A DNA stretch of 64,000 bases from a virus: the UHGV virus genome UHGV-2113617, one strand, 5' to 3'. The first letter of the stretch is position 1. Every line of letters begins with the position of its first letter. The notes beneath the pieces are model-generated. The model was not told where the DNA came from and did no database searches. It saw only the letters and a list, made by a program, of their open reading frames with translations. Both the position numbers and the translations under genes were made by a program. This document shows, piece by piece, positions 4,274-52,624 of the stretch.

Positions 4274-4744
4274 TTAATCATGTTTCCACACCCCATCGGT
4301 ATTTGACCAAAGTCGCTGATTATCTGATCCTCGCCACAGCTTTTTGGTCGGAAGATTTTTCTCATACTTCCCATCAATAATAACATCAACATATTTAAGC
4401 ATTTCTAGTTGTTTAATATCTTCAAATTTATATCCTGTCCACAACCAAATGCTTTTATTTGGATAAAGATTTTTTACCGTTTGAACAATGCAATGAACAA
4501 CATCTCGGTTATCAGGATAAAGAGGGTCTCCTCCAGTTATAGTTAATCCTTCTATATAATCATTATTCAAACATTCAATTAATTGTTCTAGTGTTTCACC
4601 AGTGAATGGAACGCCATTTCTAGCATTCCATGTTGATTTATTATAACACCCTTCACATTTATGCAAACACCCCGTAACGAAAAGAACGACCCTGCATCCA
4701 GGGCCATTCACAAAATCACAGGGATAAAATCTATCGTAATTCAT
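4274..4744 (-). CDS. nrdG: anaerobic RNR activating enzyme (radical SAM)
   Basis: 156 aa, CLHKCEGC = CxxxCxxC cluster motif; overlaps nrdD stop. Confidence 0.9.
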   Translation of the reverse strand: MNYDRFYPCDFVNGPGCRVVLFVTGCLHKCEGCYNKSTWNARNGVPFTGETLEQLIECLNNDYIEGLTITGGDPLYPDNRDVVHCIVQTVKNLYPNKSIWLWTGYKFEDIKQLEMLKYVDVIIDGKYEKNLPTKKLWRGSDNQRLWSNTDGVWKHD

Positions 4745-6558
4745 TGGTGTTTAACCCTATGCATGATTTCTTTATTTTTGCCAAGATTAAATCCGCGTTC
4801 GTTCGGATTTCCCAAATAACCACAAGTTCTTCTTATTGTGTTCATCTTTTTAGGATCAGTTTCTCCACAAATAGAACAAACAAATCCGTTTTCAGTAGGA
4901 GTCATTTCATGGGTACTTCCACATGTAAAACATTTATCTACTGGCATATTAACACCAAAATAATCTAAATGTTGTGCAGCATAATCCCATACAGCCTCAA
5001 GACCTTTTAGGTTATTTTTCATATCAGGAAGTTCAACATAAGAAATGTGACCACCTGTCGCAATGAAATGATATGGGGCTTCGCGAGAAATCTTTTCAAA
5101 CGGAGTAATATTTTCTTCTACTGAAACGTGGAAACTGTTAGTGTACCAGCCTTTATCGGTAACATCTTTTACACTTCCATATTTTTCGGTATCAAGTTTA
5201 CAGAAGCGATAGCACAGGTTTTCTGCAGGAGTAGAATACAAACTAAAAGCAAATCCGGTTCTTTCAGTCCATTGTTTAAGATGAGTATTCATTTTAGTTA
5301 AAATTTCTTGTCCAATATCACGACCGACAAGAATATTCAATTCGTGAATACCAATGTATCCTAGAGACACTGAACTTCTACCGTTTTTAAATAACTCAAT
5401 TATATCGTCATCAGGTTTAAGACGAACCCCGAATGCACCTTCTTGGTAAAGAATAGGAGCAACAGTAGCTTTAACTCCTTTTAAGGAACTAATTCTACAC
5501 ATCAATGCTTCAAAACATAAATCCATTCGTTCGTTGAACAATTCGGCAAATTTCTGTTCATTGAACTGTGTTCCAATATAAGAATCTAACGCAATACGAG
5601 GAAGATTCAGTGTTACAACACCAAGATTATTACGTCCATCAAGAATTTCATTACCAGTCGAATCTTTCCATACGCCCAAGAAACTACGACAACCCATTGG
5701 AGAAACAGGAATAGATGAACCAGTGATAGCTTTATTGTTCTTAGCCGAAATGATGTCAGGATACATTCTTTTACTTGCACACTCTAGAGCAAGCTGTTTA
5801 ATATCATAGTTCGGATCGTCTTTATAAAGATTAACACCTTCTTCAACGAACATAACAAGTTTAGGGAAAATAGGAGTTATCCCATCACGACCGAGACCTT
5901 TAATACGATTTTTCAGAATTGCTTTCTGAATCATTCGTTCAGTCCAGTCAGTTCCCGTACCAAATGTAATTGTTACAAAAGGCGTCTGTCCGTTTGAACT
6001 AAAGAGAGTATTTACTTCATATTCATAAGCTTGGAACGCATCGTATACGTCTTTTTCTGTTTTAGATTGGGCATAATTCAATGCATCTGCGATTTGCCAT
6101 TTTTCCGCGTCCTCAATATGTTTCGCATAGGTGCGTTTAACATAAGGAGAAAGTACTTTATCTACATTCGCAAAAGTCGTTCCGCCATATTGATGAGAAG
6201 CAACCTGTGCAGTAATTTGTGCCATAATTGCAGTAGCAACGCCGATTGATTTAGGGGTTTCAATCTGTGCATTACCGAGCTTAAATCCGTTCTCAAGCAT
6301 TCCTTTTAAATCTACTAAACAACAATTAGTAAATGGAAGAGCAGGGGAATAATCAATATCGTGGAAATGGATAATTCCGCTTTCATGTGCTTTCATAATA
6401 AAAGACGGGACCATATTTTTGGCAATGTGTTTAGACACAATACCAGCCATAAGGTCCCGTTGAGTTGGAAAAACACGAGAATCTTTATTAGCATTCTCGT
6501 TTAAAAGGTCTTTATTAGTTTTATGAATTAATCCTTCAATTTCTTTTTCAATTGTCAT
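4741..6558 (-). CDS. nrdD: anaerobic ribonucleoside-triphosphate reductase, uninterrupted
   Basis: 605 aa, C-terminal glycyl-radical motif RTCGYLG and CxxC...CxxC zinc site; no intron in the reading frame. Confidence 0.95.
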   Translation of the reverse strand: MTIEKEIEGLIHKTNKDLLNENANKDSRVFPTQRDLMAGIVSKHIAKNMVPSFIMKAHESGIIHFHDIDYSPALPFTNCCLVDLKGMLENGFKLGNAQIETPKSIGVATAIMAQITAQVASHQYGGTTFANVDKVLSPYVKRTYAKHIEDAEKWQIADALNYAQSKTEKDVYDAFQAYEYEVNTLFSSNGQTPFVTITFGTGTDWTERMIQKAILKNRIKGLGRDGITPIFPKLVMFVEEGVNLYKDDPNYDIKQLALECASKRMYPDIISAKNNKAITGSSIPVSPMGCRSFLGVWKDSTGNEILDGRNNLGVVTLNLPRIALDSYIGTQFNEQKFAELFNERMDLCFEALMCRISSLKGVKATVAPILYQEGAFGVRLKPDDDIIELFKNGRSSVSLGYIGIHELNILVGRDIGQEILTKMNTHLKQWTERTGFAFSLYSTPAENLCYRFCKLDTEKYGSVKDVTDKGWYTNSFHVSVEENITPFEKISREAPYHFIATGGHISYVELPDMKNNLKGLEAVWDYAAQHLDYFGVNMPVDKCFTCGSTHEMTPTENGFVCSICGETDPKKMNTIRRTCGYLGNPNERGFNLGKNKEIMHRVKHQ

Positions 6559-24500: not shown

Positions 24501-24779
24501 TTATTCTTTAAATCTAATCAATTTATTCATAGACTTTGTAACTTCTGCACGAACCTCATGTAGGTTTTTGAGTTGCTCAAGACGCTGCTCATAGTAAGCA
24601 ATTTCATCTTCTTCGAGACAGTCCTGTGAATCTTCTTTAAGATAGCGTGCATAGTCCTGGAAAGCGTTACGGACTACTTCCTGGAAGTCATCAAGACTTT
24701 GAATTTTCTTAGGAGCAACAGATACACGACGAGGGGCAGTATAATACTCATAACCAAACCCTGCGCTTAATTGGGCCAT
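24501..24779 (-). CDS. hypothetical protein
   Basis: 92 aa from MAQLSAGF; TAATG coupling to upstream gene. Confidence 0.5.
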
Positions 24780-25045
24780 TAATATTTTTCCTCTGGTTGG
24801 AACACAGCACGACAAGCCCACATACTGGCTTCTTTGAGTTTCGTTTTAGCAATAGTTAACTGATCGAGACTTTCAGCATAATTCTTCGCGAATTCGCAGT
24901 CTTCACAATTATCTAGTGCTTCCCAGAATTCATCATATAAAGCATCAAAGATAAGCCCTAAACGAACTTCAGCATCTTTGATAGCATTCACTTTACCGAT
25001 TTTCTCTTCAGTATGTGGCTTATAACCCTTAATATCTTCAATCAT
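24779..25045 (-). CDS. hypothetical small helical protein (vs.4/Acb2 position, unverified)
   Basis: 88-aa ORF; assignment by synteny only. Confidence 0.45.
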
Positions 25046-25259
25046 ATTTTACTTCCTCACCAGTACCTAAATCATATTCAACTAAACGAATAGGTTCATG
25101 AATGCCATATCCCTGAACAGAAATTTCTGTCGTAGGATAAATTCCATCAATATCACCCATATTCCATGCTTCATTAAATTGCTGTTCGCCTGAATTACTA
25201 AACCACTCGGCGAAAGCATTTAGCACATCTTCAGAACCTTCAATAATTATCTTTGCCAT
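25038..25259 (-). CDS. hypothetical acidic protein
   Basis: 73-aa ORF. Confidence 0.5.
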   Translation of the reverse strand: MAKIIIEGSEDVLNAFAEWFSNSGEQQFNEAWNMGDIDGIYPTTEISVQGYGIHEPIRLVEYDLGTGEEVKYD

Positions 25260-25621
25260 TACAGACTCTCGGTAAAGGTACGAGCGATAACGTCGCGCTG
25301 CTGTTCCGGAGTCAGAGAGTTAAAGCGAACTGCATAACCGGATACACGGATGGTCAGCTGCGGATATTTTTCCGGATGCTTAACTGCATCTTCCAGAGTT
25401 TCGCGACGCAGAACGTTAACGTTCAGGTGTTGACCACCCTCGATTTTAACTGTAGGTTGTGTTTCAATTTCAATTTCACGGGCATGCAAACCATAGAAAA
25501 TTTCTGGGTCTACAAAAGAGTCCTCTTTAAAAGTTTTAGAGACAATAATTCTTGCTTGAATACCGTCTTCAAAATAAATAGTACCTTTATGCGTGCCTTC
25601 AAGAATTTGATATGCTTTCAT
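25259..25621 (-). CDS. autonomous glycyl-radical cofactor (GrcA/YfiD-like)
   Basis: 120 aa from MKAYQ; C-terminal ...[29 protein letters not shown] glycyl-radical motif; 3' half GC-rich and host-like. Confidence 0.85.
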
Positions 25622-25629
25622 ATAACCTC

Positions 25630-25959
25630 TCAATTAGAAAATAAATTTATCCAAGACTGTTCTTTAATTAAAAATGGCTCAGAATCATATGCCATTAAAC
25701 TTTGGGTGATTAGTCCTTTAAAAGGTCCATCAATAAATTCCATGGTAAAATATGGAATTTTATTCATTAATCTTGCATTAGGAGCAGTACACAAAACTCT
25801 GCATCCTTTGAATACGCCTTTTTGTAATTTGTATTGCTTAGGATAAAATTCGCTCAAGACGTTGTTATTTGCCAAAATTTCAAAATGATTCACCAATTTA
25901 TTTTTAATAGTTTTTGGCGAAAAATAAAGATATTCGAAAAGCTGCGTGTCTGTCATCAT
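25630..25959 (-). CDS. hypothetical protein
   Basis: about 109 aa from MMTDTQ. Confidence 0.5.
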
Positions 25960-26495
25960 TGCATTCCGATTACGAAAAACTGCGGACGAGTAATACCACC
26001 GATGCAACAATTACTATTGCAGCAGTGTTGTACAGTGTCAATATGGACGCTATAAATCTTATCCATATCAGGAGATTTAACAGGCTCATCGATTATATAC
26101 AAAATCCGCGAAAGCGATAAACCTCTGAACTTGCTTCCTTTATTACCGATAAAACTACGGACAGAATCGGTAAATAAACGAAAACGTATACCATCATTAG
26201 AATAACGCGAAAATTCCTTTTTAATGTTATTTGCAGAAATTTTAGCGTAAGCTGAAGTATTAGAAAGAACAATAACTGTTCCACCGTCATACAACCAATT
26301 AGCGGCAAAATTAGTTACTGCAGTTGATTTACCGGATTGACGTCCACCATCTAGTCGAAGTGTGCAATACTGCTTAAGTAAGTCTTCAAATGGCGGGATA
26401 TATTCGTTTTTACAAATTTCTTCTACTCTAGCATCAGAATGGTGTGTAAAAGCATTCATCAGGGATAGATAAGGACCAGTTAAAAATGTTCTCAT
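25956..26495 (-). CDS. small P-loop NTPase
   Basis: 179 aa from MRTF (GAGAGAATAAA RBS); Walker A GGRQSGKST, Walker B ILYIIDEP. Confidence 0.55.
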   Translation of the reverse strand: MRTFLTGPYLSLMNAFTHHSDARVEEICKNEYIPPFEDLLKQYCTLRLDGGRQSGKSTAVTNFAANWLYDGGTVIVLSNTSAYAKISANNIKKEFSRYSNDGIRFRLFTDSVRSFIGNKGSKFRGLSLSRILYIIDEPVKSPDMDKIYSVHIDTVQHCCNSNCCIGGITRPQFFVIGMQ

Positions 26496-26510
26496 TTTAT
26501 TCTCTCTAAA

Positions 26511-26579
26511 TTTGGGCCATTCCATGGCGCATGAATTGTCCATTTCTGTATTTACCCATTACCGCACTTGGGCTCGACC
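26511..26579 (-). repeat. 5' UTR element copy A (degenerate)
   Basis: about 75% identical to 27107-27176; TTTGGG(C/A)CA...GCATGAATTGTCC...ATTACCG. Confidence 0.6.
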
Positions 26580-26734
26580 TTATTACAGGTTGGCGGGAAT
26601 CCCTCACAGAATCATGAGGTCCAGCTTGTTCCCATGTTATTTGAATGTAAATATTTTTGCCTTAATACTTATACCAGTGTGGCTTCGTTAAAATTTTTCA
26701 TCGAGTCATTTTACCTCTCCAAGTAATTATGAAT

Positions 26735-32400: not shown

Positions 32401-32427
32401 AAAAAGCCCCAACCTTTCGGTCGGGGC
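32401..32427 (-). terminator. rho-independent terminator (upstream copy)
   Basis: minus-strand GCCCCGACC-GAAA-GGTTGGGGC then TTTTT; ends the tRNA/stable-RNA transcript. Confidence 0.7.
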
Positions 32428-32429
32428 TA

Positions 32430-32744
32430 AGCCTTGCGGCAACCTTGTCGGGGTTCCACCTGCTAAGGCAAGTGTTTGTACGAAACGCCGGGATTTGAAC
32501 CCGGTTATTGAGCAGTTGACGCTACTCAATATTTTTAAAAGGCCATATCTCGACCATATCCGAACGTTCCGTCAAAAACGCTACTCGGCTTACGGCAAAG
32601 ATATTTCCTCGAATCGATAATTTGGTGCGCCGTTTCTGCTGTGATGTAAGAGGGCATCAACAAATCATAAAGATTTATTAACACAATTCCTTACCCAGGG
32701 AACATCAGTCCGACGACTTACCGGTAGCGACCCGGTTTCTCATT
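32430..32744 (-). ncRNA. probable small stable RNAs (T4 species 1/2-like)
   Basis: no ORF; tRNA-like T-arm CCGGGTTCAAATCCCGG at 32488-32504; between tRNA-Arg and terminator; boundaries not determined. Confidence 0.35.
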
Positions 32745-32821
32745 TGGTCGAGGCAGAAGGATTCTAACCTTCAACCAACGGATTAGAAATCCGTTGCTCT
32801 ATACAATTGAGCTATGCCCCG
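32745..32821 (-). tRNA. tRNA-Arg (anticodon TCT)
   Basis: hand-folded cloverleaf: acceptor CGGGGCA/TGCCTCG, anticodon loop TTTCTAA, T-arm GAAGG-TTAGAAT-CCTTC, encoded CCA; ends +/-2 nt. Confidence 0.8.
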
Positions 32822-33490: not shown

Positions 33491-33531
33491 AAATATCTCC
33501 TATTTCTAAGAGTATTTATGTTCTCAAAATA

Positions 33532-33603
33532 TGGCCCTGGGTGGAATTGAACCACCATCTGGCGATTATGAGTCGCTTGCTTGAACCTTCCAGCTACAGG
33601 GCC
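33532..33603 (-). tRNA. tRNA-Ile (anticodon CAT, presumably lysidine-modified)
   Basis: acceptor GGCCCTG/CAGGGCC, anticodon loop CTCATAA, T-arm GGTGG-TTCAATT-CCACC. Confidence 0.75.
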
Positions 33604-33609
33604 TTGATA

Positions 33610-33682
33610 TGCTGATTGACGGAATCGAACCGCCGACGTCCTCATTACAAGTGAGTTGCTCTACCTACTGAGCTAAATCAGC
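33610..33682 (-). tRNA. tRNA-Thr (anticodon TGT)
   Basis: acceptor GCTGATT/AATCAGC, anticodon loop CTTGTAA. Confidence 0.8.
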
Positions 33683-33689
33683 GAAATTA

Positions 33690-33776
33690 CGGAGGCGATA
33701 GGATTTGAACCTATGAGTCGCCGGAGCGACTGCCGGTTTTCAAGACCGGTGCATTAAACCACTCTGCCACGCCTCC
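33690..33776 (-). tRNA. tRNA-Ser (anticodon TGA)
   Basis: acceptor GGAGGCG/CGCCTCC, anticodon loop CTTGAAA, long variable arm. Confidence 0.8.
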
Positions 33777-33778
33777 AG

Positions 33779-33852
33779 TCTCCGCGGCAGGATTTGAACC
33801 TGCGACATTCTGCTCCCAAAGCAGACGCTCTACCAAACTGAGCTACACGGAG
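33779..33852 (-). tRNA. tRNA-Pro (anticodon TGG)
   Basis: acceptor CTCCGTG/CGCGGAG, anticodon loop TTTGGGA. Confidence 0.8.
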
Positions 33853-33864
33853 TAAATTAAATTT

Positions 33865-33936
<72 letters not shown>

Positions 33937-51077: not shown

Positions 51078-52624
51078 GTAACAATACATATCAGCACGTA
51101 TCAAATGAATCAAAATATGTTAAATTCGATCCTACTGGATCGAATTTTCCTGGCACTGTTACGACAGTACAGTCTGCATTATCAAAAATAAGTAATATCG
51201 GCGTAAATGGTATTCCTGATGCAACTATGGAAGTTAAAGGAATAGCAATGATTGCGTCAGAGCAAGAGGTTTTAGATGGAACTAATAATTCTAAAATCGT
51301 TACACCAGCTACATTAGCAACAAGATTATTGTATCCAAATGCTACTGAAACTAAATATGGTTTAACGCGTTATTCAACAAATGAAGAAACATTAAAAGGC
51401 TCAGATAATAATTCATCAATAACACCACAAAAACTGAAATACCACACTGACGATGTGTTCAAAAATAGATATTCGTCTGAGTCATCAAACGGGGTTATTA
51501 AAATATCATCTACACCTGCAGCTTTGGCTGGAGTTGATGATACTACTGCGATGACTCCGCTAAAAACCCAAAAACTTGCAATAAAATTAATTTCGCAAAT
51601 AGCTCCTTCAGAAGACACTGCAACAGAATCGGTGAGAGGAGTAGTTCAATTATCTACTGTTGCACAAATTCGTCAAGGAACTCTCCGCGAAGGATATGCA
51701 ATTTCCCCGTATACCTTTATGAATTCTGTTGCAACACATGAATATAAGGGTGTTATACGCCTAGGAACGCAGACTGAAATTAATAATAATTTGGGTGGTG
51801 TTGCAGTAACAGGTGAAACACTAAATGGTCGAGGAGCTACCGGTTCTATGCGTGGAGTAGTTAAATTAACGACGCAAGCCGGTATTGCCCCTGAAGGTGA
51901 TAGCTCTGGAGCATTAGCATGGAACGCAGATGTAATTAATACTCGTGGTGGACAAACTATTAATGGTTCTTTAAATTTAGACCATCTTACAGCAAATGGA
52001 ATTTGGTCACGCGGTGGAATGTGGAAAAATGGCGATCAACCTGTTGCCACTGAAAGATATGCGTCCGAACGAGTTCCGGTTGGAACTATTATGATGTTTG
52101 CGGGTGATTCAGCACCTCCAGGTTGGATTATGTGTCATGGTGGAACCGTGTCAGGTGACCAATTTCCTGATTATAGAAACGTAGTTGGAACAAGATTTGG
52201 TGGCGATTGGAATAATCCTGGCGTTCCTGATATGCGGGGTCTTTTCGTCAGAGGAGCCGGCACAGGCGGTCATATTTTAAATCAACGTGGACAAGATGGC
52301 TATGGAAAGGATAGACTGGGCGTAGGATGTGACGGAATGCATGTTGGTGGTGTTCAGGCACAACAAATGTCATACCATAAACATGCTGGTGGTTGGGGTG
52401 AATATAACAGAAGTGAAGGCCCATTTGGCGCGTCAGTTTATCAAGGATATCTTGGAACTAGAAAATATTCCGACTGGGATAATGCTTCATACTTCACTAA
52501 TGATGGATTTGAATTAGGTGGACCGAGAGATGCTCATGGTACACTTAATCGTGAAGGATTAATTGGTTATGAAACTAGACCATGGAATATATCATTAAAC
52601 TATATTATTAAAGTTCATTACTAA
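51074..52624 (+). CDS. 12: short tail fiber gp12
   Basis: 516 aa. Confidence 0.85.

Follow-up and report, generated by a model that had tools for sequence, protein, structure and literature searches.

A T4-type vs.6 gene whose glycyl-radical domain was very probably overwritten by E. coli grcA through gene conversion

The window analyzed here is the whole 64,000-nucleotide stretch of the virus genome UHGV-2113617, and the locus under study is a short gene on its minus strand, vs.6 (25259..25621, minus), the ortholog of T4 vs.6 (protein Y06I) and a putative GrcA-like autonomous glycyl-radical cofactor. The gene is complete (120 codons plus TAA), running from an ATG at 25621-25619 to a TAA at 25261-25259 and yielding a product of 120 aa. 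A Shine-Dalgarno-like GAGAGG, read directly off the sequence (25626..25631, minus), stands before its start and overlaps the TGA stop of the upstream gene vs.7 (25630..25959, minus; 109 aa from the ATG at 25959), which is given as context only and for which a Pfam search returned no match. On the other side, the ATG of the downstream gene vs.5 (25038..25259, minus; 73 aa) overlaps the vs.6 stop codon (TAATG), an overlap that constrains the 3' junction described below. A promoter and terminator scan of positions 24700-26700 gave nothing above shuffle expectation, and vs.6 seems to be read within a dense run of overlapping genes.

The window comes from a T4-like E. coli phage: the ~14 kb around vs.6 are 96-98% identical to E. 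coli myoviruses, among them vB_VIPECOOM01 and vB_EcoM_P8. At the nucleotide level, vs.6 is 95-99% identical to the vs.6 genes of T2, T4 and Shfl2 and 93.8% identical to that of RB69, and matches to 80% or more of its length were obtained in 859 phage records. For the T4 derivative record T4_ev240 (classed as Tequatrovirus), the nucleotide identity is 95.2% and the two proteins agree at 118 of 120 residues; moreover, the order vs.7-vs.6-vs.5 is common to the window, T4_ev240 and RB69, as judged from the annotated neighbours. Because of this identity to T4 and RB69, the shared gene order and the protein match, we take the gene at 25259-25621 to be the window copy of the already characterized T4 vs.6 (Y06I). 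The names given to vs.6 across hundreds of records are inconsistent, ranging from hypothetical protein, pyruvate formate-lyase and 2-ketobutyrate formate-lyase to ribonucleotide reductase subunit, putative acetyltransferase-like protein and GrcA, and the present analysis corrects the first, second and fourth of these labels, which many records carry.

At the protein level, the Pfam family Gly_radical (PF01228) is matched over residues 60-101 (E=2.2e-18; 67.2 bits, with a cut-off of 22.2). Autonomous glycyl radical cofactors of the GrcA/YfiD type are standalone proteins of about 14 kDa, and the vs.6 product, with its 120 aa and a C-terminal half consisting of the Gly_radical domain, fits this small type. 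The first-pass annotation had pointed to an almost exact match between the C-terminal region and E. coli GrcA, and the match is exact over the last 60 residues (60/60 identical), which are identical to the PflB C-terminus at 48 of 60 positions; the PFL-type radical motif, RVSGYAV, is present. The closest solved structure is that of E. coli GrcA/YfiD (6OWR, E=4.6e-42, covering residues 22-120), followed by PFL (4.8e-26). In the NCBIfam equivalog TIGR04365 the protein scores 154.6 bits over residues 20-120 only, under the 170-bit cut-off (E. coli GrcA scores 234 bits), because its N-terminus has diverged.

The biochemistry of this family has been described for two members, YfiD and T4 Y06I, the only validated spare-part proteins so far (PMC8683613). 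Both are activated by PFL-AE and restore oxygen-cleaved PFL (Knappe and co-workers; Wagner et al. 2001, BBRC 285:456, as cited in PMC8683613). YfiD consists of a disordered stretch (residues 1-60) and a structured radical domain (residues 61-127); the structured C-terminal half takes the place of PFL residues 693-759, and both the binding of cleaved PFL and an efficient installation of the radical require the disordered N-terminal half (PMC8683613). The window protein should act like Y06I, both in its activation by PFL-AE and in the rescue of PFL, because it is 98% identical to Y06I and has an identical radical domain. According to this scheme, host PFL-AE would activate the vs.6 spare part, which would then dock into oxygen-cleaved host PFL and restore its activity; with a working half identical to the host's own, the spare part would fit both host PFL and PFL-AE.

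The DNA encoding this protein is divided into three stretches of different origin, namely a 5' part (codons 1-61; 25439..25621, minus), a tract apparently derived from the host (25272..25438, minus) and a short 3' tail (25259..25271, minus). The tract encodes GGQH...RTFT, that is, the structured glycyl-radical domain including RVSGYAV, and it is identical to the K-12-type allele of E. coli grcA over an unbroken 167 of 167 nt; many E. coli strains show the same 100% identity. Over its last 183 nt, vs.6 shows 97.8% identity to the grcA gene of each of the 5,426 complete E. coli genomes. A maximum chi-square analysis places the breakpoint after nucleotide 183 of the CDS (25439/25438), where grcA identity steps from 48.7% on the left to 98.3% on the right (chi2=109, permutation p<=5e-4). 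In the rest of the 64 kb, megablast against E. coli genomes found no other match.

Composition changes at the same place. The 3' 180 nt of vs.6 have a GC content of 0.51 and a GC3 of 0.47, whereas the 5' 183 nt have values of 0.33 and 0.21, respectively. In the tract, all five Leu codons are CTG (6% usage in the other genes of the window) and all three Pro codons are CCG (14% usage), so that the first-pass description of a GC-rich segment with E. coli-like codon choice, set against an AT-rich 5' part, is borne out. Among the 167-nt windows of the 64 kb, the tract ranks at the 99.7th percentile in GC content (0.509, against a window mean of 0.35). Three other regions reach this level, one of them a tRNA cluster and the other two, at 32404-32574 and 52198-52365, unexplained. 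These last two regions (GC 0.51-0.52) are not tRNA genes and have no match in E. coli DNA. The strongest GC peak of the window, at 33531-33890, is a cluster of seven tRNA genes, with an eighth tRNA gene at 32745-32821.

The tract does not extend to the end of the gene. The 3' tail, (A)CC GAG AGT CTG TAA, carries three synonymous differences from E. coli (at 25271, 25268 and 25265) and is of the phage lineage: GAG AGT is common to all E. coli T-even and Slopekvirus homologs, whereas E. coli grcA reads GAA AGC. The GAGAG contained in this tail (GAGG in Klebsiella phages) lies 6-10 nt upstream of the overlapping vs.5 start, and the record of Klebsiella phage KLB10 annotates the homologous GAG as the ribosome-binding site (RBS) of the downstream gene. 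We infer that GAGAG is a Shine-Dalgarno-like motif for vs.5, and the position of the 3' junction may be set both by selection for the translation of vs.5 and by the loss of homology past the stop codon. The 5' junction falls where phage-host similarity collapses, in the GGQH codons, 8 residues inside the boundary of the structured domain in YfiD (60/61).

The donor can be specified in some detail. In a comparison with grcA from 80 species, drawn from a scan of reference genomes, the tract is 98.3% identical to E. coli and 96.7% identical to another Escherichia species, and no other genus rises above 91%; the values given host by host are 92% for Citrobacter and 83% for Salmonella. Over this stretch, E. 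coli grcA shows the same two values, 92% against Citrobacter and 83% against Salmonella. The proportion of synonymous differences (pS) is 0.00 between the tract and E. coli, compared with 0.34-0.62 when this stretch of E. coli grcA is set against that of other enterobacteria, and with 0.76-0.79 for the remaining phage homologs. The segment had been proposed to be recent and host-derived, and the synonymous identity upholds this and points specifically to E. coli; the alignment to grcA likewise gives an identity to the host gene as high as that to T-even homologs. The genes pflB and tdcE were considered as donors and ruled out, since in nucleotides the tract and pflB share no more than 79% identity.

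Concerning the direction of transfer, grcA of E. coli and of Salmonella differ by a pS of 0.51 in the 5' half and 0.62 in the 3' half, which amounts to parallel divergence. Since the two halves of the host gene diverge in parallel between hosts, grcA has passed vertically through the hosts, and it is the phage that received the tract; the opposite direction, from phage to host, was ruled out by this congruence. Within the phage's own genome the tract is an outlier in both GC content and codon usage. As a side observation on the distribution of grcA, a copy is borne by "plasmid unnamed4" (275 kb) of Klebsiella sp. WOUb02, which may represent a chromid, a large plasmid carrying a housekeeping-type gene or a piece of chromosome that was mislabelled.

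A second, host-specific version of the same arrangement is found in T4-like phages of Klebsiella and Raoultella. In phi1_146043, 15882-6-1 (Jiaodavirus) and M21a, the 5' half (with an identity of about 71% to the window's) and the tail are of the phage type, and the tract between them has 3-6 differences in 159 positions from a Klebsiella allele (L173; Klebsiella grcA DNA was obtained by a protein route) and 26-29 in 180 from E. coli. E. coli and Klebsiella grcA differ at 21 sites: the phages of E. coli side with E. coli at 20-21 of these, and those of Klebsiella/Raoultella side with Klebsiella at 17-19, including the host-specific residues LLDAVEH and TSEQQ. A reverse search of the phage collection returned 109 records at least 95% identical to the Klebsiella tract; for the E. 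coli-type tract, 643 records are at least 95% identical and another 104 fall in the range of 80-90%, the gap between the two groups being nearly empty. These patterns argue that the same kind of conversion happened independently, from Klebsiella grcA, in the Klebsiella/Raoultella T4-like phages.

Several further homologs deserve separate mention. The Slopekvirus phages of Klebsiella (L086 and L088) have the residues LLDAVEH, yet their pS against the Klebsiella grcA tract is 0.76, and the related Enterobacter phage Entb_46 has LEDAVKH instead; the Slopekvirus LLDAVEH could be either an old, decayed conversion or a convergent adaptation to the host. In IMGVR_UViG_2974754850_000001, which resembles the Klebsiella T4-like phages, the vs.6 homolog reads ...DAETFMATRRVK and then stops before the radical domain, the stop being due to a frameshift, a pseudogene or a sequencing error. 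A candidate for a third host-specific event, IMGVR_UViG_2706794630_000006 (tract 91% identical to Yersinia grcA), was rejected, its N-terminus being the ordinary bacterial MITGIQITK...; this 19-kb contig is filed as viral and may be bacterial DNA or a transduced fragment.

The age of the E. coli-type tract was gauged from the comparison with RB69. Between the window phage and RB69, identity is 71-75% in the 300-nt flanks (25622-25921 and 24959-25258), 89% in the 5' part of vs.6 and 99.4% in the tract; pS amounts to 0.33 for the 5' part, against 0.00 for the tract (Fisher p=5e-5). An acquisition before the split between the two phage lineages would predict 6.7 synonymous changes per lineage, and 0 are seen (P about 1.4e-6 for both lineages). 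The tract is thus much younger than the window/RB69 split and, since it is far younger than the divergence of the lineages, either it entered repeatedly from E. coli or the tract alone moved between phages. The unconverted 5' half (25439-25621), at 89% compared with 71-75% in the flanks, is itself either unusually conserved or exchanged between phages.

It is quite possible that a single host-to-phage conversion took place in E. coli phages and that the tract then spread among Tequatrovirus and Mosigvirus by phage-phage recombination. This agrees with the 5' junction and the GAG AGT tail that all E. coli-type phages share, as well as with the finding that the tail variants assort with both alleles of tract position 36, as expected from recombination among phages. 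That position is C/T-polymorphic in E. coli, and both alleles are found in phages, in both tail backgrounds, a pattern that fits repeated conversion and phage-phage recombination alike, and that could also reflect parallel mutation. T-even phages named after Salmonella or Yersinia hosts keep the E. coli-type tract, which again favours a single event. Set against it are the 25-29% difference between the window and RB69 flanks, so that what moved would have had to be a very short patch alone, the lack of any synonymous difference from an E. coli allele in either the window phage or RB69, and the presence among phages of either E. coli allele of position 36, C as well as T; none of the three is decisive.

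A more tentative proposal is concerted evolution, in which T4-type recombination would repeatedly re-copy the radical-domain tract of vs.6 from the grcA of the current host, keeping it matched to PFL and PFL-AE, with the 13-nt tail protected by selection on the vs.5 RBS. If true, this would mean that a metabolic gene carried by a phage tracks its host by recurrent gene conversion, an idea that we regard as rather doubtful at present. Searches of the phage collection with the Salmonella-type tract found no phage at least 90% identical, and searches with the Enterobacter-type tract found no match. Since the T-evens named after Salmonella and Yersinia hosts keep the E. coli tract and no Salmonella- or Enterobacter-type tracts are found, conversion is episodic, and host tracking is not a general rule.

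Concerning the target of the spare part, the first-pass annotation had suggested that the protein could rescue either host PFL or the phage's own NrdD, pointing out that the phage also encodes NrdD and its activase NrdG. Both genes are indeed found in the window (NrdD at 4741-6558 and NrdG at 4274-4744), NrdD too has a Gly_radical domain, and Nolan et al. (2006), who noted only the Gly_radical match for vs.6, guessed at a role in nucleotide metabolism. In the Klebsiella jumbo phage K64-1 (L091:254-616), additionally, a grcA-like gene whose motif is of the PFL type has nrdD as its immediate neighbour on one side and, on the other, a DUF4326 gene followed by nrdG, a placement between nrdD and nrdG that would suit a spare part for NrdD; this linkage is not seen in T-evens. 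Nevertheless, the idea that the vs.6 protein is, or also is, a spare part for phage NrdD, activated by NrdG, is improbable: BLASTP detects no similarity between the vs.6 protein and phage NrdD (E=6.3), the radical motif (RVSGYAV, against RRTCGYLG in NrdD) and the surrounding helix are of the PFL type, and the domain has been kept the same as that of GrcA, the PFL-specific protein of the host. Furthermore, PFL rescue is the only activity shown experimentally, for Y06I (PMC8683613). The other suggestion, a spare part for host PFL, agrees with what Wagner et al. (2001, as cited in PMC8683613) published on the function of T4 Y06I, and on sequence grounds the same function is expected of the window protein.

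The remaining question is what kind of gene the tract was inserted into. The first-pass annotation had read the gene as a host segment fused to a phage N-terminus, and in its strict form this would make vs.6 a new gene, assembled from a host glycyl-radical domain and an unrelated phage N-terminal peptide. The sharp step in composition and identity at 25438/25439 and the lack of nucleotide similarity between the 5' half and grcA are what such a fusion would produce. However, the AT-rich 5' part is a diverged homolog of GrcA's disordered N-terminal half: BLASTP aligns it to GrcA residues 25-66 (E=6e-6), and a profile-profile comparison with hhalign, nine phage N-termini against fourteen bacterial ones, aligns 41 columns (E=1.8e-6, probability 90%), with the first ~18 residues of the vs.6 protein not aligning with GrcA. 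Full-length homologs of the same architecture also exist in Karamvirus, Slopekvirus, Krischvirus, T5-like and jumbo phages, with 3' parts only 63-84% identical to any host, and these represent the unconverted state. Finally, the last 13 nt of the gene are of the phage type. The fusion is therefore very improbable and, given the homologous 5' half and the phage-type last 13 nt, the tract is better described as an internal conversion patch than as a fused domain. The 5' half has a pN/pS of about 0.16 relative to RB69 and appears to be under purifying selection among phages.

That no recombination took place at all, and that a single ancient acquisition had its C-terminal half kept host-identical by purifying and codon-usage selection, is hardly credible, for although this domain is highly conserved as a protein in all homologs, its synonymous sites are identical to E. 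coli (against the far higher pS values given above for enterobacteria and other phage homologs), the Klebsiella phages match Klebsiella instead, and the choice of CTG and CCG runs contrary to the phage's own codon usage.

Taken as a whole, the evidence makes it very probable that vs.6 is a PFL spare part encoded by an old phage grcA homolog, in which the radical-domain tract was overwritten by E. coli grcA through gene conversion. T4-like phages would long have carried a full-length grcA homolog, and homologous recombination with the host chromosome would have overwritten the radical-domain stretch in the E. coli T-even lineage, leaving a patch of at least 167 nt. T-even phages are virulent and degrade host DNA, and vs.6 would be a very clean case of host-to-phage gene conversion in such a phage, since its 167-nt patch is bounded on both sides; the parallel Klebsiella event in a sister phage group adds to it. 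If conversion is ongoing, vs.6 and grcA would form a simple system in which to measure how often virulent phages copy host DNA, and it could be asked whether the match of the radical domain to that of the host improves phage yield during oxygen shifts. The gene, its family and its biochemical role are already known, and for specialists in glycyl-radical enzymes the gene and its role are textbook-level; this is no new kind of system. For the mosaic at the nucleotide level, we found no description in the searchable full-text literature, and a prior mention is possible.

Among known systems, the closest is T4 Y06I itself, which has the same vs.7-vs.6-vs.5 position, the same length, a host-identical tract and a phage-type tail. 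The two proteins differ by two substitutions just upstream of the tract (T54Q and I60V) and, at the nucleotide level, the T4 tract has 2 synonymous differences from the K-12-type allele, to which the window tract is identical. E. coli GrcA/YfiD (6OWR; TIGR04365) shares the division into two halves, with a structured radical domain preceded by an N-terminal half that is disordered in YfiD. In the window protein, the N-terminal half is 7 residues shorter than that of E. coli GrcA and about 33% identical to it and, unlike E. coli grcA, the window gene sits in an AT-rich phage operon with overlapping genes and without the grcA flanks. The C-terminal radical domain of PflB resembles that of the window protein in its 48 of 60 identical residues, the same 13-residue motif and a common fold (published for YfiD 61-127 and PFL 693-759), but pflB, with its 79% nucleotide identity, is not the donor of the tract.

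The nearest parallel for the process is given by the psbA and psbD genes of cyanophages, phage-borne host genes in which host-phage recombination occurred inside the coding region (Sullivan et al. 2006, PMC1484495). In both cases a host-derived metabolic gene of T4-like phages shows intragenic recombination with the host gene. Unlike psbA and psbD, vs.6 contains just one tract, which has sharp boundaries and exactly the sequence of the host, matches one structural domain and occurs in enterobacterial T-evens. The comparison further differs in that only the host-to-phage direction is seen for vs.6, and in the second, apparently independent case that comes from another host genus.
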